Part shown: positions 23,869 through 44,663 of the stretch, in pieces
Layout: the number at the start of each line of letters is the position of its first letter
Numbering within the stretch: the first letter of the stretch is position 1
Virus record (IMG/VR): IMGVR_UViG_3300028610_002655
Coordinates: 1-51,665 of that record
Origin: a virus
Taxonomy: Duplodnaviria > Caudoviricetes
Reading direction: 5' to 3' (one strand)
Length of the DNA stretch: 51,665 nucleotides
Program-made: the position numbers and the translations under genes
The notes under the pieces: model-generated
The model's database searches: none
What the model saw: only the letters and a program-made list of their open reading frames with translations
Told to the model about the DNA's origin: nothing

Positions 23869-24246
23869 TTATTTTTTCTCCGTTAGAGTTTTTTCAAGAC
23901 TTTCGGGGGTGATTTCATATACTTCACTCAAAATAAATGAAATTATTTTAGATAATGGAAATAGAATATCTATAACATCTAATTCAGGATAAAGGCCTAA
24001 AAGCGCAAATGCTGACAAAGCTCCTAATTCTTGTGGAAAATTAGGTAATGAAGAAGTATATTTTAGCATAGAATTGACTTTAGCTACACGTATAAATTTA
24101 AGAAAAAATTTTTGTGAAAGTATTGGAGCTAGCCCTGATTCTGCCGTGTAAGATATAATCCCAAGAGAAAGTAACTGTTTAAATCCTTCCTCTATTTCTT
24201 CATCTGTTATTACTTCTCCATCTATTTTTATTTCTTCGTCTGTCAT
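23869..24246 (-). CDS. Hypothetical protein
   Basis: Coupled ORF in the early operon. Confidence 0.55.
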   Translation of the reverse strand: MTDEEIKIDGEVITDEEIEEGFKQLLSLGIISYTAESGLAPILSQKFFLKFIRVAKVNSMLKYTSSLPNFPQELGALSAFALLGLYPELDVIDILFPLSKIISFILSEVYEITPESLEKTLTEKK

Positions 24247-24782
24247 ATTTTCTCCTTTTTCTTTTTTGGTGTGGGGAGATGTTGTTCATCAAATCCTTGA
24301 TAGCATGGTGTGCCTTCTGGAACTCGCTTGAATATCCAAAACGATACAACATCACGATATGAATTAAAAGCCTGGACCACTTGCCAGCACTCTATTAATT
24401 CTAATCCTGTAACCCATGGAAACCATGGCGCATTGATAATTACATAGCCTCCCATCTCTACTAAATCCCTCATGGCATACGAGAAATATCTGCGAGTGTG
24501 ATATGGGATCTCCCAAGGGGGATCAGCCAAAATGTTTTTCTGTGAGCTTGAACCTAACTTGTCTGGCAAGTCCCGAATATCTGCGATTATATCGGGATTA
24601 TTCCCTCGCTCTATGTCAATTCGCAGTGCCCCGACTTGGGACTTGCCAGAAAAACAATGACATAGATCAGCATCTCTAATTTCTAGTCTATGCAAAGTGT
24701 CTCGGACAAAATCCTCTATTTTATCAGGCCAAACCCAGGCCTCAATAAACTTGAATTTTCCCTTGTCTACTTTATGTTTCAT
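24243..24782 (-). CDS. Small amino-type (probably N6-adenine) methyltransferase
   Basis: Motif I-like HCFSGKS; DIIADIRDLP; catalytic DPPW. Confidence 0.75.
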   Translation of the reverse strand: MKHKVDKGKFKFIEAWVWPDKIEDFVRDTLHRLEIRDADLCHCFSGKSQVGALRIDIERGNNPDIIADIRDLPDKLGSSSQKNILADPPWEIPYHTRRYFSYAMRDLVEMGGYVIINAPWFPWVTGLELIECWQVVQAFNSYRDVVSFWIFKRVPEGTPCYQGFDEQHLPTPKKKKEKI

Positions 24783-25099
24783 CTTCTACTTCTCCTTGCC
24801 ATATCCACTGCCCTCTCAAATCTCAAATCATCTTTTATTGCCTGCAAAATTGTGATTAGCTGATGACATGTCTTGCATAGTAATGCAAATCTGTCTGGGA
24901 ATTTTTTGATTATTGGAAGAATATACAAATTGTAAAGATACCAGGAATTAAAATCAGAATGTTTCTTTTCATCTTTCCTGTATACTATATGATGAAAGTG
25001 AAAATTCTTTCCAAACTTTTTTAGACATACCATGCATGCACCACCAAGTAGGGATGCTACTTTTTTTCTTTCCTCTTTGATTATTTCTATTTGATTCAT
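24779..25099 (-). CDS. HNH-like endonuclease
   Basis: LGGACMVC...FHFHH...LLCKTCH. Confidence 0.7.
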   Translation of the reverse strand: MNQIEIIKEERKKVASLLGGACMVCLKKFGKNFHFHHIVYRKDEKKHSDFNSWYLYNLYILPIIKKFPDRFALLCKTCHQLITILQAIKDDLRFERAVDMARRSRR

Positions 25100-27033: not shown

Positions 27034-28218
27034 ATGACATATAAAAACACAAAAACAATATTATTTGCATCTTTGATTGCTGCAATGATTCTATCATTTT
27101 CAGGAATGAACATGATAGAAGCTGCAGCAAATGAGAAGGCAAATGATAAAGTAGAAAAAAAATCAACACTAACAAAAGAACAAAAAGAAGATCTCAAGCG
27201 AGTAACTGAAATCATGACTAAGCGTCTTATTTTGGAAACTGAGAAAAGAGGACTCGAAAAAAGTGCATCTACTGATGACAAAATAGTAAAATTAGAAATC
27301 GAAAAACAAATAGATGATATTGATAAAGAGTTCAATAAACTCCAAAAGAAAAGTCAAGAAAGATACCATGTAACTCCAGAAAGACAAGCTGAATTATCTC
27401 AAATTAGAGAAAATACCGACTTTTCTGGAATTCCACTAGTAGGAATGGGAATTGATGGCATAAAAAAACAACTTTCTTTTGAAATCTTAGATAGTAAATG
27501 GAACAGAGCACTTGAAGACAAATATAGAAAACAATTACACGAATTGATTCCTAGTGAAAAATCTTTCACTATTAAATTCAGAGATACCCCAACAGACTTT
27601 TTATGTGGTAGTAGACAAAATTGTATTCAATTATTTGGTGGAACACAAATCGAAGCTCATACAAGCGGTAATTGTACCTTGGGTTACAAAGCTATTAGAT
27701 TAGGAGTAATAGGATTTGTAATGGCAGGTCATTGTGCAGATGGTGATGTAGGTGAAAGTGTATATCATCCAACTGGAAATCGTAGGGCTGTGGGTATTGT
27801 GATTGCAGAATTGAAACATTCTAACACATCTTGTGATTGTGCATTTGTGGGAACTTCTAGTAGTGATGTATCAAGCAAAATCTATTTTGGTCCATTTAGG
27901 TACTATCAACCACAATACTACACATCCACAACAAACCAAGCAGGCCAATATGTAGCAATGTCTGGTGTAGGAAGTGGAATTGAATACGGTGTAGTAAATG
28001 ATATTGACTTTACTGCAAATTATAACAGTGGTACAGTCAAACATTTAGTAAAATCTACATTAGATTCAACTTATGGAGATAGCGGTGCACCAGTTACACG
28101 TTCAACTGGCAAAAGTATTTTTGGCATAGTTAGTGGTGGTCAGGAATTCTGGGGCGAAACTTATCACGTTCCAGTTCAGAGAGTCATGACAGAATTAGGT
28201 GCTTATCCAGTATCATAG
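27034..28218 (+). CDS. Secreted S1 (alpha-lytic/streptogrisin-like) serine protease with pro-domain
   Basis: Signal peptide; CTLG, MAGHC, DCAFV and GDSGAP give a complete His-Asp-Ser triad. Confidence 0.9.
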   Translation: MTYKNTKTILFASLIAAMILSFSGMNMIEAAANEKANDKVEKKSTLTKEQKEDLKRVTEIMTKRLILETEKRGLEKSASTDDKIVKLEIEKQIDDIDKEFNKLQKKSQERYHVTPERQAELSQIRENTDFSGIPLVGMGIDGIKKQLSFEILDSKWNRALEDKYRKQLHELIPSEKSFTIKFRDTPTDFLCGSRQNCIQLFGGTQIEAHTSGNCTLGYKAIRLGVIGFVMAGHCADGDVGESVYHPTGNRRAVGIVIAELKHSNTSCDCAFVGTSSSDVSSKIYFGPFRYYQPQYYTSTTNQAGQYVAMSGVGSGIEYGVVNDIDFTANYNSGTVKHLVKSTLDSTYGDSGAPVTRSTGKSIFGIVSGGQEFWGETYHVPVQRVMTELGAYPVS

Positions 28219-28751
28219 GATTCACCCTTGTTCTTTTTTTCATATTTTTCCCAAATTCGTACAACTATCAAACCAATTACTATTATGAGTAATGGAGTTG
28301 TGTAAGTGTAATCAGTTGAATTTTCAACATATTCAATATGAGTAGTTGTCATATGAACCCAAGAAAGAATTCCAATAAATCCAATTACTGCAAACTTTAT
28401 TCCATCTCTAAAAATCCTCTTCAGAATTCCTTGTTTTTCAATGTCTTCTTTAGTTTTATTAATTGTAACAAAAATATCACTATTAATTTTAAAAAATCTA
28501 TGTTCTTGTCCTTTTCTTTTAATCTTCTTTTCTGTAATTGTTACCATGCCTAACTCTTCCATCTTTTTTAGATGATGAATTACCAGACTAACTCTCATGT
28601 CAAGTGTTGTGGCAATCTCATTTGTGTACATTGCCTGATTCATTAGATTAAAAATGATTTTTCTACTTGAATCATTACTTAGTAGCTCGCCTAGAGATTT
28701 GAGGTTATCATCAGATGCAAATACCTTGATTTTTGGTTCATCATCTAACAA
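28203..28751 (-). CDS. ArsR-family wHTH regulator with two C-terminal TM helices
   Basis: LSNDSSRKII...YTNEIA...SLVIHHLKKMEELG; two hydrophobic segments. Confidence 0.85.
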   Translation of the reverse strand: MLDDEPKIKVFASDDNLKSLGELLSNDSSRKIIFNLMNQAMYTNEIATTLDMRVSLVIHHLKKMEELGMVTITEKKIKRKGQEHRFFKINSDIFVTINKTKEDIEKQGILKRIFRDGIKFAVIGFIGILSWVHMTTTHIEYVENSTDYTYTTPLLIIVIGLIVVRIWEKYEKKNKGESYDTG

Positions 28752-33113: not shown

Positions 33114-36100
33114 CTAACTTACGTTGACAGTTATACTAACTGGTGGTGATAATGCCGTTGGATTATCAACAGACTCCCAAACAAATACAGTAGCAGTGTA
33201 TGCTCCTGCTTCACTTGGTGTCCATGATACCGCTGGGCTGAATGATTGACCACTTGTTAATGAACCTGTAATCCAGTCTAATTTGACTGTAACACCGTCA
33301 CTATCCTGAACCTGTAACAAGTATGCGAATGCTTGCTCTCTATCCTGACCATTTATCAAGTCAGCAGTGAGTTGTACCTGTTGGTCAACTGTAACAACAT
33401 CTAAGCTGTTACCGAAGGCATCAACGGTTCTCAAGTTAGCAGCTGGTGCTCGCTCAAGAGGTGGTACTATCGTGCCGATTAGTGTAGTGGCAGTAATATC
33501 AAGTTCATCTGCAGTTGTGTACGGATCTGGTAGTGTATTGTCCTCATATTCTGCGGTGACAGTGTCACCTTCTGCGACTCTGAGTCTGTGACCAGATGAT
33601 TCATCGGAGGTTGTGAAGAACACAGTACCTTCGAATATTCCGGTTGCCTCATTAGTCTCAGTTACAGTAAGGTCAATACCTCCGGCATCGGAGTCAGACC
33701 ACACATCGACAGCAAAGTTGTCGACTGCTTCTGGATTAAAGTTCATATCTGGATCAATTATTCTAACAACACCTGTTCCGCTAGCTGGATAGCTTGCTTC
33801 AAGCCACTGAGTTTCACCTATATTCCATCTGATAAGTGCTGAACCAATTACAGTTTCATCCTCTGAGAATTCAAAGGATACTGTAAGTCCGTCATCATCA
33901 TCTGCTGGTAATAGTCCATCTGTTGGACCACCATTATCTAGGGATATAGCACCTGTTGCGTCTGTTTCAGTACCATCGCCATCTGCATCATGTTCAGGAA
34001 ATCCTGTAAGGATTACTTCACCTGTGAAGATGCCTGTGTCAGTTCCAGTTTCAACGAGTTTGTAATTGTCAATATCAGAACCTCGAGTTGAGACCTTTAT
34101 TGGGTCTGCAGCTGTGTTTCCAATTTCGTCAACTAAATCACCGTCAAAGTTGTGATCTGGAGCGACTATGGTAATGTAGACTTTATCAGTCCATGTGTAA
34201 ACTTTTTGGTCAAGCTCTACAGTTGCACCGAAGTTTGAAGTAAAGATTGTAACATTTACATCTTCATCTTCATCACCTACATAGTTTGATCCGGATGGAC
34301 CCCAATCAGTATATTCTAATACGATTTGTTCACCTCTGTTAAGGTTGTTACTATCTAGTTCCGCAGGAATCTCAATGACTACTTGGAAGATACCAGTAGA
34401 GTCACCAGTTTCTCTGAAGCTAGATGGTTCTGGATCAAAGTTAAGATCTTTACCCAATGTGGTAATAGCTGCATCAGAATCCCATTCAATCAAGTCCAAG
34501 GAATATGATTCTGCACCATCATTGTCCAAATCAAAGTCTGGCTCAATGAGTGTTAAAATCATATCAGAACCGATAAGATATACGGATTTGTCTGATTGCA
34601 ATACACCATTTCTTAGGTCAAATGTAGCTGAATCTGTGACAGTATTTGGTTCACCTGAAGCATCAGTTGGATCAGTGTATTCTACAGTGAGAATATCTCC
34701 TTGTAAGATACAATGTTTATCATCGTTTGATGCACCTGCAATACGGTCTGATACTATAGTACCTTTAGTAGTTGGACATGCTGAACTTACTGGGCCATCA
34801 GTGAATCTGATAGTCAAATCAAGTTCAAATATACCAGCATCAGGTGCAATCTCTAAGATTGGACCTAATTCTAGTGTATTATCAATTACATCCTCGCCTA
34901 TAGTAATTTGTTTACTATTTGCACTAGATGCTCCTGCTGTTGCAAGAACTACATGATTGGAGCCTCTACTAATAGTGACCTTTACAGGACCATTATCTGT
35001 AGATTCTTCTATCTTATCCTCACCATTTGGAGCTAAATCAAAGTCTGGATCATTGACTCTAATATGTACAGTCAAATCACCAACACCTAATTCACCACCA
35101 GCAGTAGCATGAAGTGGGAAGTATGATTCTCCTTCAGCGGATGTACCATATGGTACTGAATAGACAGTTCTATCAAATGCGACAGAACCTGTATTTGCAC
35201 TTATACCTGCAGAATCACCTGTTTCTATAGTTTCACCAGATGCATCTCTAAAGTCTTGATAGTTAACTTCAAGATCAACTCCTGTTACAGAATCGATTTT
35301 AAAGGTGTCACCATCAGGCTGACAGTATGTTTTTGGAATTTGGAATGTTCCAATAAATACACCAGTAGAGTCACCAGTTTCTATAATAGTACTCATAGAG
35401 CCAAATAGACCACTTGCACCATCGCAAGATTTCCATTTAGCATCATTGAAAGTAATATCAAGAAGTAATGATCTACCATCACCAATACTATCTGATTCTC
35501 TTACTACATAGACATCAGGAAGTTCGCTGTCGGTATTGAGATCAGGGTCGTTAACTGTTACAATAACAGTATCTGCAACTTTGTAGTTTGTACTATCAAA
35601 TGTTACCATACCCGAATAAGTTGGAGCATCTTCTTTGGCAGATATTGTGGTTTGTTCACCCTCATTATCTGTATCTAAGTAGACTATCTCAACTGCATCC
35701 TCATCAGTCAAATCTTCATGAACTATTACATCAAGCTCATCACCTATTGTTTCAAGGCTAGCGAATGTATCAGCATTAAAGATATTGATTTGATTTAGCA
35801 TAATGTATTCGACTGTACCAGTGTATATTCCACTAACTGAAGTAGTTTCTTCTGCTTCAAATCTGTATATTGCATCGTTGTAACGTTTACCATCACTTGA
35901 TTGTCCAAATGTAAGGATATCAAAGACGACGTTAAATGATTTACCTTTTAGACCTTCAGAATCAACTGTGATAACAAGATTTCCTGATGTTATATCATCA
36001 ATTACATCTTGATTAACGTAGATTAATCCTTGATCATCCAATTTTAATCCGTTAACGGATGCAGTTATTTGATTTAGGGATCTAATATCATAGTTAATCA

Positions 36101-37991
36101 GTGTATGGACACCATCGACATTTACAAAGTCATCTAGTATGTTAGAAGAGATTCCAGTATCAATTACAACTGTAGGGTTAGCATCAGGTGTAATGGGAGT
36201 GGCATCAATTCTTAATATTTTACTAAATTGTGTAACAGTAAATGTTGCTGGAGCATTAGTTGAAGCACTATTTAGTGAATCATTTGTAGCTTTAATTTGC
36301 TCAACCAAACTAGTTTGTTCAACAATTGCAATATCTAGCTTTGACTTTACTATTAATTCTGTAGGAGTAAATAATGCAGTAATCTCTTCTGCAATTTGAT
36401 TTACTCCAATAACTGCATTATCTAACAATGCCTGTTTGGCATCTATGGCTCCTTGTGTAGCACCTCGTAGCCATAAATCGTCAAGTTCAGTACTGTTAAC
36501 AATGACAAAGGCGTCCCACTTTGTTTGATTTGTGTTAAGAACAGCTGCATTGGTATTAGATTCAATTTCGGTCCAAGCGGTTTGATTGTCAAAAACCCAT
36601 TTATCTACAATGGTTTCTCTATCAGTTAATTCTTTGAGTGCATTGACTAAGTCAGTTGTATCCATTTGTCCAGTTATAGTAACAACACTTGTTGATTCAA
36701 GAGTTGTTGGACTACCAATTTCTATTGTTGGAATTACAGTAAAGATTGCATCACTAACATCAAAGTCATTGTCGAGTTTTGTGTTAGTATTTGCGTCTTG
36801 ATCTGTAATTACAACAGTAAGTGGTTCTCCAGAACTCCATTCACCATCAATGGATGCAATATCCATATCAATTGTACCACCAAAGTATTTTACAAAAATA
36901 CTTGATTTGTCAGCATTGTACTCAATAATTCCACTTTTGTCTCTTATTTTGGCATCAGTTGTAAACAAATCAGATTTATCTGAATCGTCTGTATTATCAA
37001 ATACACCACTATTTGGTGCTGATTCTGTAACTACTATAGCTGGTCCATAGTCAACTGATGTGAAATGATCATCGTTTGGTTTTAAAACGAGCACATTTTT
37101 TACATCAAGATCTAAGAATCCATTATCATCATAATACAAAGCATTTTGCTTTGCTGGTGTAATGTCAGCTAAAGTAGTGAGGTCAGTGGTTTCATCAACA
37201 ATACCATACCATGAAGTTTTATTCTCGACATTGAATGTCCAAGTATCTTCATCAGTAGGGTCGATGTTTAGTTGCATGTCATCAATGACTAGATGAATAT
37301 CTGCATTGTGTGCATAATCATTTTTGTCTAGACTGTATGATGCAAAGTCATCCATATCTTCTGTGTAGGTAAGACTGACTACTTGATCAGGACTACCACC
37401 ATAGATTACAGCAACTGTTTGAGCATCAGTGAAGGAGAATGTTTGGATAAATGGCCATTTGTCTTCATCTGAAGATTTAAGCTCAATTTGTCCCAAATCA
37501 CCTTCACCGCCAGGATTAGCATAAGAGTTTTTGTTGAGACTACGTTCATTGTTTAGAACATTTTGTCTATCATCTCCATTACAGAAAACCTCAGCTGCGT
37601 CATCAAAGTCACCCTTAACCGTAAGTGTTTTAGTACAATCTACACCAAAATCAATATTCGTGTTAGGTAAAGCATCTACTACATTTTGAGCAGCAACATA
37701 TGCATACCATGATCCATCATCGCCTTGTGCCATGACTAGATCATCACCATCAATAGTTACATTTGGTTGACCCTTTGATTCATCAGTTTGACGAATACTT
37801 GGATCATTCACAACAATCTCAAGGACCATTGGACCACCAAAGTTAACGCTTGACACATACAGATTTGCTGTTTGTGTTACTTCAGCTGAGGCAGTTGGCG
37901 TAAAGCCTGGAAAGGCAATAGTCATACCGCCTGCTAGCATGATTGTCATTAGTGTTAGACTAGTTATTTTTCGTTGTATTTCGTTATTCAT
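33114..37991 (-). CDS. Nitrosopumilus-type S-layer protein (Nmar_1547/NmSLP-like), likely start MNNEIQRK
   Basis: N-terminus MNNEIxRKITSLTLMTIM.AGG; repeated V.DPD.N...ETGDSTG.F Ig-like units; C-terminus VWESVDNPTALSPPVS.TVNVS; very acidic. Confidence 0.9.
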   Translation of the reverse strand: MNNEIQRKITSLTLMTIMLAGGMTIAFPGFTPTASAEVTQTANLYVSSVNFGGPMVLEIVVNDPSIRQTDESKGQPNVTIDGDDLVMAQGDDGSWYAYVAAQNVVDALPNTNIDFGVDCTKTLTVKGDFDDAAEVFCNGDDRQNVLNNERSLNKNSYANPGGEGDLGQIELKSSDEDKWPFIQTFSFTDAQTVAVIYGGSPDQVVSLTYTEDMDDFASYSLDKNDYAHNADIHLVIDDMQLNIDPTDEDTWTFNVENKTSWYGIVDETTDLTTLADITPAKQNALYYDDNGFLDLDVKNVLVLKPNDDHFTSVDYGPAIVVTESAPNSGVFDNTDDSDKSDLFTTDAKIRDKSGIIEYNADKSSIFVKYFGGTIDMDIASIDGEWSSGEPLTVVITDQDANTNTKLDNDFDVSDAIFTVIPTIEIGSPTTLESTSVVTITGQMDTTDLVNALKELTDRETIVDKWVFDNQTAWTEIESNTNAAVLNTNQTKWDAFVIVNSTELDDLWLRGATQGAIDAKQALLDNAVIGVNQIAEEITALFTPTELIVKSKLDIAIVEQTSLVEQIKATNDSLNSASTNAPATFTVTQFSKILRIDATPITPDANPTVVIDTGISSNILDDFVNVDGVHTLINYDIRSLNQITASVNGLKLDDQGLIYVNQDVIDDITSGNLVITVDSEGLKGKSFNVVFDILTFGQSSDGKRYNDAIYRFEAEETTSVSGIYTGTVEYIMLNQINIFNADTFASLETIGDELDVIVHEDLTDEDAVEIVYLDTDNEGEQTTISAKEDAPTYSGMVTFDSTNYKVADTVIVTVNDPDLNTDSELPDVYVVRESDSIGDGRSLLLDITFNDAKWKSCDGASGLFGSMSTIIETGDSTGVFIGTFQIPKTYCQPDGDTFKIDSVTGVDLEVNYQDFRDASGETIETGDSAGISANTGSVAFDRTVYSVPYGTSAEGESYFPLHATAGGELGVGDLTVHIRVNDPDFDLAPNGEDKIEESTDNGPVKVTISRGSNHVVLATAGASSANSKQITIGEDVIDNTLELGPILEIAPDAGIFELDLTIRFTDGPVSSACPTTKGTIVSDRIAGASNDDKHCILQGDILTVEYTDPTDASGEPNTVTDSATFDLRNGVLQSDKSVYLIGSDMILTLIEPDFDLDNDGAESYSLDLIEWDSDAAITTLGKDLNFDPEPSSFRETGDSTGIFQVVIEIPAELDSNNLNRGEQIVLEYTDWGPSGSNYVGDEDEDVNVTIFTSNFGATVELDQKVYTWTDKVYITIVAPDHNFDGDLVDEIGNTAADPIKVSTRGSDIDNYKLVETGTDTGIFTGEVILTGFPEHDADGDGTETDATGAISLDNGGPTDGLLPADDDDGLTVSFEFSEDETVIGSALIRWNIGETQWLEASYPASGTGVVRIIDPDMNFNPEAVDNFAVDVWSDSDAGGIDLTVTETNEATGIFEGTVFFTTSDESSGHRLRVAEGDTVTAEYEDNTLPDPYTTADELDITATTLIGTIVPPLERAPAANLRTVDAFGNSLDVVTVDQQVQLTADLINGQDREQAFAYLLQVQDSDGVTVKLDWITGSLTSGQSFSPAVSWTPSEAGAYTATVFVWESVDNPTALSPPVSITVNVS

Positions 37992-38086
37992 GTTATTAGT
38001 TTTCAATTAAAAAGTTAGTATATAAAATGAATGAACGATTGATTCTTGATTTTGCCAAATATTTTATAAATTATTAAATTAGCAAA

Positions 38087-39367: not shown

Positions 39368-39405
39368 TGTAATTTTAATAATTTCAGATATAAAATAAAA
39401 TACTT

Positions 39406-39463: not shown

Positions 39464-39617
39464 GTGATCATACTTGTTTTTTTGGTTTTCATAACTTAGA
39501 TACTTCGTATGGGATTCATGGTTTTCATGCCATTTACAACTCGTATGAGATTTGTGGTTTTCAAACAGATTTCACCTCATATTCTTCTTTTGGTTTTCAT
39601 ATGATGGGTACTTCATT
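39464..39617 (-). ncRNA. TIGR-like guide RNA array: four 36-nt units, each with two 9-nt spacers
   Basis: TGAAAACCA at exact 36-nt spacing (+ strand starts 39483, 39519, 39555, 39591), alternating with a WAYGARKTR repeat; begins right after the Tas stop codon. Confidence 0.85.
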
Positions 39618-40508
39618 TCAATCATCTGTAAATGCCTCAACTGTACTATGTTGTAAGAGTTGTTTAGTATATGGCTCTGTTGTTTCTAATCCTTGTTGCC
39701 TTCGCCAAGTTTGCCATAAATGAACAAGAAATATCTTTACTGTCTTTCGCATGGCAATATTAACAATGTGACTGTCTGTGTGTTTTGGGTTTTTTCTTCT
39801 TTCTTTCTTTTTGATTTTATCATATAGTTTTCTGTACTTACATCTGTTAGGTGAACACATTACAAATGATCTTCCAACTTTCCAAGCAACTTGCCTTAGT
39901 CTAGGATTCCAGTTTATTTGATAACCTGAAATCTTTTTCTGTATGGTATATTCAGTCATACTATTACACACTGGACATTTTAGAAACGGGTGTAACATCT
40001 TGGCTGTTTTTCCTGTGTGATATTCTTTTATGATAAATGTTGGTTTTTTACAATTAGGACAGAAATTATTTCCACCATACCCAGCATATTGGTGTAAACT
40101 GGATGGATGCTGATATTTTTCAATATCATCAATGTATGCTATCAATCCAGCAGAAAGTAGTACGTCAATACCTGTTATTTTTACTAAATATTGGTTATGT
40201 AATGCATAATTTTTTAGTTGATTTCTTAACAATCGTTCAATGTCTTTCTCAAAAGATTGCGCGTTCCCAAAGATTGTAGTAATTCCATAAATAGATAATT
40301 CATCCTCAGTTAGTGAATGTTCACGTTTTGAAGCTCTTATTCTTGCTTGTGTTTGTATTCTTTGTCCTTGAAAATCATAGTAAATATCAACTAGATTCCT
40401 TAACAAGTATGGTGGGATTTCATCAGTGTCTTTAAATGGTATAGGAACTTTCTTTTTGATTTTTGCCTTTCTTTGCTTACTCTTTATCTTTGACAATTCC
40501 CTTCTCAA
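39618..40508 (-). CDS. TasA-like Nop-domain / IS110 C-terminal-like RNA-binding protein, no nuclease domain, zinc-ribbon insertion
   Basis: Coiled coil LRNLVDIYYDFQGQRI; TGIDVLLSAGLIAYIDDIEKY...SLHQYAGY; WNPRLR; AMRKTVKIFLVHLW; no RuvC/DEDD region; adjacent array. Confidence 0.82.
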   Translation of the reverse strand: MRRELSKIKSKQRKAKIKKKVPIPFKDTDEIPPYLLRNLVDIYYDFQGQRIQTQARIRASKREHSLTEDELSIYGITTIFGNAQSFEKDIERLLRNQLKNYALHNQYLVKITGIDVLLSAGLIAYIDDIEKYQHPSSLHQYAGYGGNNFCPNCKKPTFIIKEYHTGKTAKMLHPFLKCPVCNSMTEYTIQKKISGYQINWNPRLRQVAWKVGRSFVMCSPNRCKYRKLYDKIKKKERRKNPKHTDSHIVNIAMRKTVKIFLVHLWQTWRRQQGLETTEPYTKQLLQHSTVEAFTDD

Positions 40509-41340
40509 GGTACAAGCTTACTTTGGGGCCTGCCACATCAATGATGTAATGGTATATTCCGCGCATTGCATGATTGTCTCTCTTCTCTGCTAGCTCACGA
40601 ATTTTTTCTGATTTTACTAGTATATCACCTAGTGCAATCATGCCATCTTCTGCTATGTCATTCTCATAGTATATTCTAAAGAAATTTCTCATTATTGTAT
40701 AATGGTAAAATATCGACTCAGGATTAGTTGCTATCTTGGCTAAGAGTGGAATAAATTTTTTCAGCGCTGTTATATCTTGTGGAATAATTGATTGTAAAAA
40801 GTCATCAATATGCATTGGTCTGAGTGGTCTAATGGATGTAGACTTTGCATAGTGCAGACAATTAATGGCAACTGCATATCTTATCTTACTACCTTTAGTG
40901 TAATGCTCACAGTACTCTCGTAGATCATTAAAAAATTTGATCGAACCACTATCTAGTGCTTTGAGATGATCAGCTAAAGTTAGTGGTTTACCAAGGTTTA
41001 GTCTGCGATAAATCTCTCGGCTATTACCACCAGTGTATACAAATAATATCAGATCATATGTTGTTAATGCCCAAAAATCCCTAGCGTATTTTAGTCCCTC
41101 TATTCTGTGCTGGCCATCAATTACATCATATTTGGATGGACCACTAGAATGGACTAGCCGTAATACATTATCAGTGAATTTATTATCAATTATAGCATGA
41201 GCAATTTTGTGTACCTTTTGCTTTGAGACTCGTCTCTCAAATGAAGCATAAGCAAATGTCTCTTCAATCTTTGATAGATCAAAGTTTTTGAGTGTAACAA
41301 TTTTTGCCTCTGGTGGCATGTAAACCTGTTTGTTACTCAA
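40477..41340 (-). CDS. DGQHR-motif ParB/Srx-like (DndB-related) protein
   Basis: FERRVS...YDVIDGQHRIEGL...IYRRLNLGKPL. Confidence 0.8.
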   Translation of the reverse strand: MSNKQVYMPPEAKIVTLKNFDLSKIEETFAYASFERRVSKQKVHKIAHAIIDNKFTDNVLRLVHSSGPSKYDVIDGQHRIEGLKYARDFWALTTYDLILFVYTGGNSREIYRRLNLGKPLTLADHLKALDSGSIKFFNDLREYCEHYTKGSKIRYAVAINCLHYAKSTSIRPLRPMHIDDFLQSIIPQDITALKKFIPLLAKIATNPESIFYHYTIMRNFFRIYYENDIAEDGMIALGDILVKSEKIRELAEKRDNHAMRGIYHYIIDVAGPKVSLYLEKGIVKDKE

Positions 41341-43735: not shown

Positions 43736-44326
43736 CTACACACATAGGTCACTTTGAGTATCAGTATTAACACATAGATCTGCAACTATAGTATTTGGTG
43801 TGATGACTGGTTGTGGGAAAATAAAATGTTTGAATATTGTAGTTTTTGTAGCAGCTTGGAAAATTTTATGGATAAATATTGTAGTCTTTGTAGTGATTCC
43901 TTTAATATCATGTTTGAAGATTGTAGTTTTTGCAATGTTTTGAGATATACCATGTTTGAATGCTGTAGTTTTTTCTACACTTAGACGAATAATATGTTTG
44001 AATATTGTAATGTTTGCAACACCAGTAATTATCTCATGCTTGAATATTGTAGTCTTTGATGCTGAGATGCCAATATCATGTTTGAATTTAGTAATCTTTG
44101 CTACAACTAGACCCATACCATGCTTGAATATTGTAGTCTTTGAGACAAAATTAATTATAGTATGCTTGAATATTGTAGTTTTTGAAATTAGTCCACTAAT
44201 AACATGTTTGAAAATAGTAGTTTTTGAAACAGATGATTCAATTTGATGCTTGAATATTGTAGTCTTTGAGACATTATCTATTAGTTCAAGTGCTGTAATA
44301 TCGTGAGTGTGTGCAAAAGATAGCAT
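43736..44326 (-). CDS. Beta-repeat fibre protein with eleven 14-aa xxKTTIFKHxI units (likely start MLSFAH)
   Basis: 42-nt periodic repeat; GGAGGG Shine-Dalgarno-like sequence before ATG 44326. Confidence 0.75.
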   Translation of the reverse strand: MLSFAHTHDITALELIDNVSKTTIFKHQIESSVSKTTIFKHVISGLISKTTIFKHTIINFVSKTTIFKHGMGLVVAKITKFKHDIGISASKTTIFKHEIITGVANITIFKHIIRLSVEKTTAFKHGISQNIAKTTIFKHDIKGITTKTTIFIHKIFQAATKTTIFKHFIFPQPVITPNTIVADLCVNTDTQSDLCV

Positions 44327-44339
44327 GTTGTACCCTCCA

Positions 44340-44663
44340 CTATGATGTGTATAATGCGAAAGTAATTGTCTTGTTAGATCCTGATACTTGCTCACATGTA
44401 ACTCTGTATGATGAAGATGGCATCCAGTTTACTAGGATTTCAGGATTTTCTTGTACTCCTCTAACTATTGTAGTTCTATATTTTTTCTCTACTGCTGCAT
44501 CTTCATCTAAATCATAAACACGAATCATTATTTCATCACCTGCTAACAAGGCATCAAAAAATATTTTAGTTGAATAGTGTTTCAATCCTACTTGGGATGC
44601 AAATAATGGTTGCTCAGTTCCATTCATTAGTAATGAACCACTAATATCAAGTATTAATGCCAT
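44340..44663 (-). CDS. Small jelly-roll-like virion protein
   Basis: Structural cluster; pattern similar to 45268-45627. Confidence 0.55.
   Translation of the reverse strand: MALILDISGSLLMNGTEQPLFASQVGLKHYSTKIFFDALLAGDEIMIRVYDLDEDAAVEKKYRTTIVRGVQENPEILVNWMPSSSYRVTCEQVSGSNKTITFALYTS

Follow-up and report, generated by a model that had tools for sequence, protein, structure and literature searches.

A probable TIGR-TasA locus of the tasParB-tasA type with an altered edge repeat in a complete tailed-virus genome

What kind of system is formed by a viral gene whose stop codon runs directly into a string of short alternating repeats? The locus lies in a window of 51,665 nucleotides (the whole stretch of DNA that was analysed), which is a complete 51.7-kb tailed-virus genome. 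A preliminary description, made from the letters alone, had read it as a TIGR-Tas-like RNA-guided system that pairs a nuclease-less Nop protein with a 36-nt dual-spacer array. We are confident in assigning it to the TasA type of TIGR-Tas systems, in the tasParB-tasA operon form. In Faure et al. (2025), Table S1 ('ProteinInfo') has two entries with the identical 292-aa sequence, as a peptide search showed; thus, the kind and the protein were already known, the family and operon type are likewise published, and no new kind is described here. New are the changed edge repeat, a set of shared TasA substitutions, the conservation of guides and a four-cysteine insertion in the wedge. The locus is unusual solely in its altered edge repeat.

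The 296-aa minus-strand open reading frame ends in a TGA stop at 39620-39618, and the array begins at the very next base. Its features, in the direction of reading, are as follows.

39464..39617, minus strand: TIGR dual-repeat array, four 36-nt units (from reading, repeat counts and shuffles)
39617-39609, minus strand: edge0, AATGAAGTA
39608-39600, minus strand: spacer A1, 9 nt
39599-39591, minus strand: loop1, TGAAAACCA, exact copy
39590-39582, minus strand: spacer B1, 9 nt
39581-39573, minus strand: edge1, TATGAGGTG, second repeat
39572-39564, minus strand: spacer A2, 9 nt
39563-39555, minus strand: loop2, TGAAAACCA, exact copy
39554-39546, minus strand: spacer B2, 9 nt
39545-39537, minus strand: edge2, TACGAGTTG, second repeat
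39536-39528, minus strand: spacer A3, 9 nt
39527-39519, minus strand: loop3, TGAAAACCA, exact copy
39518-39510, minus strand: spacer B3, 9 nt
39509-39501, minus strand: edge3, TACGAAGTA, second repeat
39500-39492, minus strand: spacer A4, 9 nt
39491-39483, minus strand: loop4, TGAAAACCA, exact copy
39482-39473, minus strand: spacer B4, 10 nt, unlike the other variable stretches, which are 9 nt
39472-39464, minus strand: edge4, TATGATCAC, last repeat

The minus strand thus reads as had been claimed, with 9-nt repeats and 9-nt spacers alternating at a 36-nt period. The loop repeat is identical in 4/4 units and the second (edge) repeat is degenerate. Written as RNA, the loop repeat UGAAAACCA starts with UG (box D) and ends with CCA (box C) around an A-rich loop; a UG-AAAA-CCA type of loop repeat is described for TaTasR (Faure et al., 2025). 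The suspicion that the second repeat lacks a CCA end was also borne out: the window edges read UA...GUA, GUG or UUG, not UG...CCA. The array agrees with the TIGR layout as published by Faure et al. (2025), having two alternating short repeats, spacers of about 9 nt, a unit of about 36 nt and a position on the tas strand.

Could such a pattern arise by chance or compositional periodicity in an AT-rich intergenic region, or be a small CRISPR-like array? We regard this as scarcely credible. Tandem Repeats Finder reported nothing in the window at a score of 30 or more and Rfam nothing at gathering thresholds, a silence that speaks for this explanation, although for Tandem Repeats Finder it follows from half of each array unit being variable. 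Exact TGAAAACCA occurs five times on the two strands of the window, four of these within the array, and the four identical 9-mers at 36-nt spacing form the longest such chain in the window. Of 200 first-order Markov shuffles, 143 had a longest chain of 1 and 57 one of 2; none reached 3. These shuffles refute chance periodicity, as do the arrays of the same design that accompany the homologous gene in 35/53 related loci. A CRISPR array has a single repeat of 25-36 nt, whereas two different 9-nt repeats are present here, and no cas family was found among the window ORFs scanned (47 against Pfam, 36 against PHROGs).

The gene upstream of the array carries two features that are discussed below.

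39618..40508, minus strand: tasA, nuclease-free Tas protein with a coiled coil and a Nop-type C-terminal domain (NF052498, 9mty, Foldseek)
39648..39671, minus strand: codons Y280 to H287, putative precursor-RNA-cutting Y/H dyad (alignment to SpTasH)
39939..40073, minus strand: four-cysteine beta insertion, CPNC ... CPVC, about residues 146-190 (alignment, model, conservation)

The minus-strand protein is TasA, with a coiled coil and a Nop-type domain and free of a nuclease. Counted from a TTG at 40508, the reading frame has 296 aa; in the 292-aa form on record, the start is four codons further in, at 40496. The protein matches NCBIfam NF052498 ('TIGR-Tas system RNA-guided endonuclease') at 151.2 bits (cut-off 100) over profile positions 1-215 of 215, and has 115 related protein clusters. 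Its best PDB sequence match (phmmer) is the 331-aa TasR chain 9mty (E 8.4e-18), with TasH also among the best, and the alignment to TaTasR begins at TaTasR residue 120, beyond the RuvC domain. About 32 residues, mostly disordered or of low pLDDT, precede the coiled coil; therefore, there is no room for RuvC or HNH, and a Pfam scan of the protein gave no match to either. A Tas protein that has no nuclease domain is a TasA. In Foldseek, the AlphaFold model (pLDDT 83.6) is nearest to TasR (E 7.9e-11, TM 0.60) and TasH (E 2.0e-8), then to IS621 (E 1.3e-5), with Nop5 chains at merely E 1.1-1.4. The family match above cut-off and the top fold matches uphold the Nop-type protein without RuvC or HNH of the preliminary description, which had also proposed a structural comparison, with TasA, Nop5 and IS110.

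The IS621 recombinase among the fold matches, a weak Pfam Transposase_20 match (E 0.0092, 16.8 bits, under the 21.3 cut-off) and PHROG 4285, labelled 'transposase' (E 2.9e-31), could be taken to mean that the gene is the remnant of an IS110-family transposase, with the repeats as mobile-element ends or bridge RNA. This is extremely improbable. The match to the NCBIfam IS110 family NF033542 stays far under the cut-off of 140 (26.4 bits) and spans just residues 88-143, and the N-terminal RuvC-like DEDD domain is missing, there being only the short stretch before the coiled coil. TasR and TasH outrank IS621 in the fold search, TasR by five orders of magnitude in E-value, and the repeats show the TIGR layout and covariation between successive repeats (see below). 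A Nop-type RNA-binding domain and a coiled-coil dimer are common to TasA, IS110/IS621 and the archaeal Nop5 of box C/D RNPs; unlike IS621 and Nop5, the window TasA has neither a RuvC/Tnp catalytic domain nor a fibrillarin-binding domain.

We predict that Y280 and H287 form a putative RNA-processing dyad of the dual-repeat Tas type. They align with Y289 and H296 of SpTasH, respectively, and are invariant in 35 aligned sequences. The two SpTasH residues are reported as catalytic in pre-tigRNA processing (PMC13421893), and a role of the Y/H dyad in precursor processing is also given by Xu et al. (2026).

In the alignment to 9mty, TasA residues 149-187 fall between TaTasR residues 215 and 217; the TaTasR wedge is defined as G210-K230 in the methods of Xu et al. 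(2026). Whereas that wedge is short, the window TasA has about 39 extra residues with four cysteines. Across the 35 sequences, C150, C153 and C178 never vary and conservation of C181 reaches at least 90%; the insertion is modelled as four strands, all-beta, with pLDDT above 90. This wedge-loop insertion is likely a zinc ribbon, with metal binding predicted. The main text of Faure et al. (2025) makes no mention of the insertion, and the word 'zinc' has no occurrence there; the supplementary figures may show the clade. The preliminary description did not mention the insertion.

Upstream of tasA is a second gene on the same strand.

40477..41340, minus strand: tasParB-like gene, 287 aa, DGQHR motif (weak sequence matches, fold, conserved position)

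At its 3' end, the gene runs about 20-32 nt into the start of tasA. The protein weakly matches a PHROG ParB-like partition protein (E 6.1e-5), and Pfam matches to GmrSD_N/DUF6551 are sub-threshold. Its AlphaFold model (pLDDT 81.5), which has a predicted ParB/Srx fold, matches Noc, ParB-CDP, KorB, pNOB8 ParB-N and sulfiredoxin with probability 1.0, at TM values of just 0.27-0.38. A homologue lies directly upstream on the same strand in 32/32 related loci with at least 1000 nt of upstream sequence. The overlapping ParB-like gene, which the preliminary description lacked, therefore places the locus in the tasParB-tasA operon type of Faure et al. (2025). The published loci likewise combine a ParB-like gene, a nuclease-free tasA and an adjoining dual-repeat array; they differ in having 10-nt repeats, according to the text of Faure et al. 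(2025), where the window repeats are 9 nt, and in the box C consensus that is gone from the window edge.

Related arrays allow the repeats to be compared. We parsed 427 units in 35 of the 53 related loci examined, and these arrays have 5-29 units, versus four in the window. In 11 IMG/VR loci, all edge-repeat chains found lay on the tas strand. The relatives' edge is TACGAGTCA and their loop TGAAA[C/A]CCA, close to the edge TGCGAGCCA and loop TGAAACCCA of TaTIGR in Table S1 of Faure et al. (2025), which also has 9+9-nt spacers and a 36-nt unit. Spacer positions of the relatives carry less than 0.4 bit of information.

Among 358 distinct units from relatives, edge position 7 of one repeat pairs with position 2 of the next in 341, and 22 A-U and 10 C-G pairs among these are compensatory. 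Of the 24 cases with A at position 7, 22 have T in the next repeat but just 4 have T in the same repeat. Between position 6 and position 3 of the following repeat the pairing is complete (358/358 units). Covariation between consecutive edges is the pattern expected if the RNAs are cut inside the edge repeats.

Three of the four window guides recur in other viruses. Units that match guide 1 at 17/18 nt occur in four related loci (L006, L021, L022, L045), units that match guide 2 at 18/18 nt in two (L017, L037) and units that match guide 4 at 17/18 nt in two more (L026, L052). For 2000 composition-matched random guides, even the best match had at least 3 mismatches. In the guide-sharing loci, tasA DNA is only 67-70% identical over its full length (68% and 77% in two partial loci). 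Because guides are conserved across such divergent viruses, a conserved target outside the virus is most likely, either on the host chromosome or in a rival mobile element.

The geometry used in target searches puts the reverse complement of spacer B behind spacer A, on the model of the published wcaD site in E. coli. There, TaTIGR spacer B is matched exactly in reverse complement, and the 9-mer before it resembles spacer A (6/9 pairs if G-U counts, as published). Within the window, the four guides in both geometries gave 4 matches at up to 3 mismatches, versus 0-4 in 20 shuffles, and the sole match in their own virus at up to 2 mismatches was the array itself. The array was also the 1 match of 236 guides to the window. 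Against six viral genomes (the window virus and five related, 230,722 nt) these 236 guides showed no excess: 5 matches at up to 2 mismatches (one being the array), with 11 in the control geometry and 8-12 in shuffles. Exact 18-nt predicted targets in IMG/VR numbered 8 for guide 2, 14 for guide 1 (two variants) and 2 for guide 4, and collapsed by their flanks to about 3, 7 and 2 independent contexts, respectively. Six of the guide-2 matches are one conserved coding site in related contigs, and four of these contigs, compared over their whole length, matched no other guide. The matches seem no more than chance would yield in so large a collection, and we did not accept them as the target. Dyad symmetry was not enriched: the target of guide 2 is partly symmetric, but 6/235 guides reach score 6 versus 7.2 expected. 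No close relative was found in GTDB species genomes (an alignment query gave three matches at 26-31% identity), and GenBank phage records gave no match to TasA or to the terminase-like ORF. A search for tRNA genes, which covered the window plus nine stretches from related records, found none.

The edge repeat is where the window departs from its relatives. Its edges are TAYGARGTR, those of the relatives TACGAGTCA, and the usual box C is lost: position 8 is C in 0/5 window edges versus 100/108 edges of relatives. In the RNA, the relatives' edges read UA...UCA, with an A-U pair replacing G-C, so that the edge box pair is G-C in TaTasR, A-U in the relatives' clade and G.A in the window. The window edges do not have the box D and box C of the loop repeat, in the same or a co-varying form. 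Position 7 pairs with position 2 in 1/4 guides, and the other three have a G.A mismatch, which occurs in 1/358 units of relatives. The position 6 / position 3 pair is kept in 4/4 units (A-T, G-C, G-C, A-T), an outcome with a frequency of 1 in 6 by permutation alone. In TasA, the window and its two closest relatives share 12 substitutions at positions at least 90% conserved elsewhere (the window has 13), for example GIGP to GIDV and W139H; these could reflect co-adaptation or relaxed constraint. An independent sequencing run carries 148 nt of the window array with 1 difference. Two more runs hold contigs with tasA about 91% identical, window-like edges and extra 27-nt inserts; each insert contains the loop repeat and is itself placed between window-like edges.

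One explanation is that the system is in decay, the array having shrunk to four units and the protein drifting; with edges that lack box C, guides would no longer be correctly processed or bound. The edge box C (UCA) is missing in 5/5 window edges, G.A stands at the box C/D pair in 3/4 guides, the array is short, TasA has those 13 substitutions at otherwise conserved positions, and an IUPAC pattern for the changed edge matched no other IMG/VR contig. We nevertheless consider decay unlikely. Loops are exact in 4/4 units, three guides still match units of other viruses at 17-18 of 18 nt, and the edge changes are non-random, position 8 being T in 4/4 internal edges and position 7 G in 3/4. The position 6 / position 3 pair survives two double changes. 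The window and its relatives of 91% and 88% identity all retain an intact reading frame, Y280, H287 and the four cysteines, and the same edge type occurs in contigs of other runs (one near-identical, two about 91% in tasA).

Tentatively, we suggest instead that this lineage may have rewired the edge half of its guides. The edge would have gone from UACGAGUCA to UAYGARGUR while the loop repeat stayed canonical; box C would therefore have become GUR, with a G.A apposition in place of U-A, and TasA would have changed along with it. The core guides, kept across viruses that otherwise share few genes, would point to a fixed target in the host or a rival element, at which TasA would load or position the ParB-like NTPase. 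TasA with its zinc-ribbon wedge and this partner might then form an RNA-guided equivalent of a parS site. All of this taken together is a doubtful combination, put forward as a possibility.

By homology to TaTasR, SpTasH and TasA proteins tested elsewhere, we propose the following mechanism. An operon RNA would run from tasA on into the array, where each 36-nt unit may be bound by a TasA dimer joined through the coiled coil. One protomer would sit on the loop repeat, UGAAAACCA, which has UG as box D', CCA as box C', a G2-C7 pair and an AAAA loop, and the other on the two guide ends, derived from consecutive edge repeats, which in this lineage would have UAYGARGUR in place of UACGAGUCA. The loop with Y280 and H287 could cleave inside the edge repeats, yielding four guides. 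Within one 18-bp site, each of the two 9-nt spacers of a guide would pair with a different strand, and the top strand would read spacer A and then the reverse complement of spacer B. TasA having no nuclease, the complex would bind and bend DNA without cutting, and could block transcription or replication, or mark the site for its ParB-like partner. Such guided binding, which would leave the DNA uncut and may involve the ParB-like protein, is in keeping with TasA proteins that bind DNA and repress transcription without cutting it, as reported by Xu et al. (2026). Processing of the RNA, binding, repression and cooperation with the ParB-like protein are all predictions by homology. As to transcription, a bacterial-type scan returned 0 terminators and promoter-like sites at chance level. 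There is no terminator hairpin 3' of the array (folding of the following 106 nt, z = 0.23), where the sole feature is a T-rich tract, and none of the listed sequencing runs holding the sequence is recorded as RNA.

Among characterized systems, TaTIGR-TasR of a Thermoproteota archaeon (9mty) is the best match of the window TasA in both sequence and fold. TaTasR has an active N-terminal RuvC and cuts DNA, unlike the window TasA, which lacks RuvC. By description, FpTasA and MbTasA resemble the window protein, having likewise a Nop domain alone and no nuclease. FpTasA binds 36-nt RNAs (Faure et al., 2025), and for MbTasA both DNA binding and transcriptional repression are reported (Xu et al., 2026). 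The accounts of these two proteins name no ParB partner, and TasA is described as having no clear associations to other proteins (Faure et al., 2025), whereas the window tasA has such a partner.

The locus is a compact natural test case, with a complete viral genome and only four guides, and its strictly linked ParB-like partner adds to this value. Because three guides are conserved across divergent viruses, a search for the real target is tractable given host genomes from the same sediment habitats. The edge variant could show how much box C/D sequence a Tas dimer needs. On the tentative rewiring reading, a functional window array would mean that two box motifs that differ can be read by one symmetric Tas dimer.

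The genome is a complete IMG/VR virus record (51,665 bp, direct terminal repeats, completeness rating 100%), and PHROGs matches to terminase, virion and baseplate families identify it as a tailed virus. Past the stop codon of tasA (39618-40508, minus strand), the sequence reads exactly as the preliminary description had given it. A loop repeat alternates with a second, degenerate edge repeat (AATGAAGTA, TATGAGGTG, TACGAGTTG, TACGAAGTA, TATGATCAC), and the variable stretches are 9-mers, except for the last (10 nt). The features of this region are as follows.

39599-39591, 39563-39555, 39527-39519, 39491-39483, minus strand: loop repeat TGAAAACCA, four exact copies in the window sequence
39387-39403, minus strand: T-rich tract TTTTATTTTAT, about 60 nt past the last edge repeat
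40477-41340, minus strand: tasParB-like gene (287 aa, DGQHR motif), its 3' end overlapping the tasA start

Only five exact copies of TGAAAACCA occur in the window, both strands counted. The four copies in the array make up the longest chain of identical 9-mers spaced 36 nt apart; among 200 first-order Markov shuffles, the maximum chain length was one in 143 and two in 57. Tandem Repeats Finder did not report the array, as expected because half of every unit varies. Terminator scanning and folding found no significant hairpin ahead of the T-rich tract, a candidate termination signal that could function as such if the host is archaeal.

The only Pfam match of the tasA product is Transposase_20, below threshold. 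NCBIfam NF052498 (TIGR-Tas system RNA-guided endonuclease) scores 151.2 bits over the whole profile (cut-off 100) and the NCBIfam IS110 model 26.4 bits (cut-off 140). Among solved structures, chain 9mty_A (331 aa) is the closest by sequence (E 8.4e-18), together with TasH. In the structural comparison that had been proposed, an AlphaFold model (pLDDT 83.6, pTM 0.80, from an alignment of 35 sequences) matched TIGR-TasR 9mty first (E 7.9e-11, TM 0.60), then TasH entries and then IS621 recombinase, with Nop5 chains reaching only E 1.1-1.4. Together with the TIGR-type array, these matches support the initial TIGR-Tas interpretation. Alignment to TaTasR, a TasR with RuvC, starts at TaTasR residue 120, beyond the RuvC domain, and just ~32 poorly ordered residues precede two long coiled-coil helices in the model. 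Thus, the nuclease domain is absent and the protein is TasA, and the earlier statement that it has no RuvC or HNH domain holds.

Y280 and H287, both invariant across the 35 aligned sequences, align with Y289 and H296 of SpTasH, reported as catalytic in precursor processing (PMC13421893; Xu et al., 2026). An insertion relative to TaTasR, between its residues 215 and 217, spans residues 149-187 of the window protein and contains four conserved cysteines. By this alignment the insertion sits within the wedge, defined as G210-K230 in the methods of Xu et al. (2026). It is modeled as an all-beta hairpin pair (pLDDT above 90) and is a putative zinc-binding site. Neither Faure et al. (2025) nor Xu et al. 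(2026) uses the word zinc in the main text, and a literature search joining tigRNA and zinc returned nothing concerning Tas, judged by title and abstract.

The preliminary description missed the upstream ParB-like gene, which together with tasA makes up the tasParB-tasA operon described by Faure et al. (2025), the only source found to use the name TasParB in a literature search. PHROGs annotates its product as a ParB-like partition protein (E 6.1e-5). Its structural model (pLDDT 81.5) matched Noc, ParB-CDP, KorB, pNOB8 ParB-N and sulfiredoxin with probability 1.0, at TM values of only 0.27-0.38. The ESM Atlas groups it with clusters from viruses, and its neighbours by structure are of GmrSD_N type. 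All 32 related loci with 1000 nt or more of sequence ahead of tasA carry a homologue upstream of it, on the same strand.

TasA relatives form 115 protein clusters, mostly 58-91% identical. Matching loci number 11 in IMG/VR and 42 in metagenomes, some of these 53 being one contig present in both sets. No close relative was found in GTDB species genomes, and none in GenBank phages. The window's terminase-like ORF has no match in any of five related viral records (G001-G005, records of L008, L009, L011, L006 and L003), every one of which encodes tasParB-tasA and an array; G004 is classified as a provirus by IMG/VR. The module may therefore sit in, and move between, otherwise unlike viruses. In another related IMG/VR locus (L010:4640-5000) the tasA match ends at residue 230; array units and the tasA 3' end come next in reverse complement, reflecting either an inversion inside the locus or a chimeric assembly.

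We parsed 427 array units in 35 of the 53 related loci, 298 of them with 9+9-nt spacers. All edge-repeat chains found in the 11 IMG/VR loci are on the tas strand. The repeats (edge TACGAGTCA, loop TGAAA[C/A]CCA) are close to those of TaTIGR (loop TGAAACCCA, edge TGCGAGCCA; Table S1, Faure et al., 2025), and spacer positions carry <0.4 bit (n=108 units). In 341 of 358 distinct units, the base at edge position 7 is paired with that at position 2 of the following edge (278 U-A, 31 U.G, 22 A-U, 10 C-G). Of the 24 cases with A at position 7, 22 have T in the next repeat and just 4 have T in the same repeat. All 358 units pair position 6 with position 3 of the following repeat. The published structure predicts such covariation between successive repeats when RNAs are cleaved within the edge repeat (Faure et al., 2025), and its occurrence is good indirect evidence that the relatives' arrays are processed and bound.

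The window array has canonical loops and edges of the form TAYGARGTR. Position 8 is T in all four internal edges and C in none, compared with C in 100/108 among relatives, and position 7 is G in 3/4. These changes would place G.A in three of four guides where relatives pair U-A, a combination found in 1/358 of their units. An assembly oddity is ruled out by contigs from other runs: one independent run yielded 148 nt of the window array with one difference, and two others yielded contigs with tasA ~91% identical over 354 nt, bearing 27-nt inserts that each hold a loop repeat flanked by window-like edge copies (units reconstructed from alignment tables). The main rival is decay of the window system. 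The position 6/position 3 pair is kept in 4/4 guides, as A-T in two where the relatives' homologous units have G-C; this is only suggestive, given 1 in 6 by permutation alone. At positions at least 90% conserved across 29 other members, the window protein has 13 substitutions, 12 of them common to it and its two closest relatives (91% and 88% identical); GIGP to GIDV and W139H are examples. We read the altered edge as a lineage-specific variant, and consider decay unlikely.

Target geometry was taken from the published E. coli wcaD site. There, TaTIGR spacer B has an exact reverse-complement match, and the 9-mer ahead of it on that strand forms 6/9 pairs with spacer A counting G-U, in agreement with the source paper. 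Thus, the target top strand reads spacer A, then the reverse complement of spacer B. Guides 1, 2 and 4 (of the window's four units) recur in relatives at 17/18, 18/18 and 17/18, respectively, and guide 3 has no counterpart among relatives' units. The best match of 2000 composition-matched random guides always had at least 3 mismatches. The tasA DNA of guide-sharing loci is just 67-70% identical over its full length, so constraint is tighter on the guides than on the gene, an argument for targets that are conserved.

A search of 236 guides across the window plus the five related records (230,722 nt in all) yielded 5 matches at ≤2 mismatches, one being the array, compared with 11 for a control geometry and 8-12 for shuffles; predicted targets are not in these viruses. 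The array match (2 mismatches to the predicted target of guide 1) arises because the reverse complement of guide 1 spacer A (TATGATGGG) resembles edge repeat TATGAGGTG (39573-39590, 39600-39608), a likeness that may be coincidence. Exact 18-mer predicted targets across IMG/VR gave a handful of matches, which seems chance level for so large a collection. Guide 2 has an exact 18-nt target at one conserved coding site (position 1001-1018) in six related contigs (L070, L072, L073, L074, L075, L077; GC 0.38-0.40). In the four contigs searched whole, the other guides had no match, and we rejected the site as probably chance. Predicted targets show no enrichment of dyad symmetry.

Other ORFs in the window are:

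43736-44395, minus strand: 219-aa ORF with 14-residue tandem repeats (...SKTTIFKH...)
33114-38006, minus strand: 1630-aa ORF with a hydrophobic N-terminal segment and acidic Thr/Asp-rich sequence
24243-25099, 28203-28751, minus strand: HNH endonuclease ORF (Pfam E 4.6e-7), neighbouring methyltransferase-like ORF (PHROG E 1.6e-6) and ArsR-type HTH protein (Pfam E 1.7e-8)

The first two have no match in Pfam or PHROG. The DNA of the 219-aa ORF chains three identical 9-mers at 42-nt spacing, and the 1630-aa product may be a virion surface or fibre protein.

By homology, the operon RNA would run on from tasA into the array, and TasA dimers would bind it and excise four 36-nt guides, each pairing with both strands of one 18-bp site. 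Lacking a nuclease, the complex would bind and bend DNA; tested TasA proteins repress transcription through such binding (Xu et al., 2026). The strictly linked ParB-like protein would probably act at those sites too.

Novelty of the system is not supported: short peptides of the window protein, searched in the Faure et al. (2025) supplement, led to two Table S1 'ProteinInfo' rows with the identical 292-aa sequence, and that table covers proteins of every TIGR system in the study. Thus, the kind of system, operon type and protein were already catalogued. Still of interest are the altered edge repeat, the wedge with its four cysteines, the guides conserved among relatives and the ParB partner.
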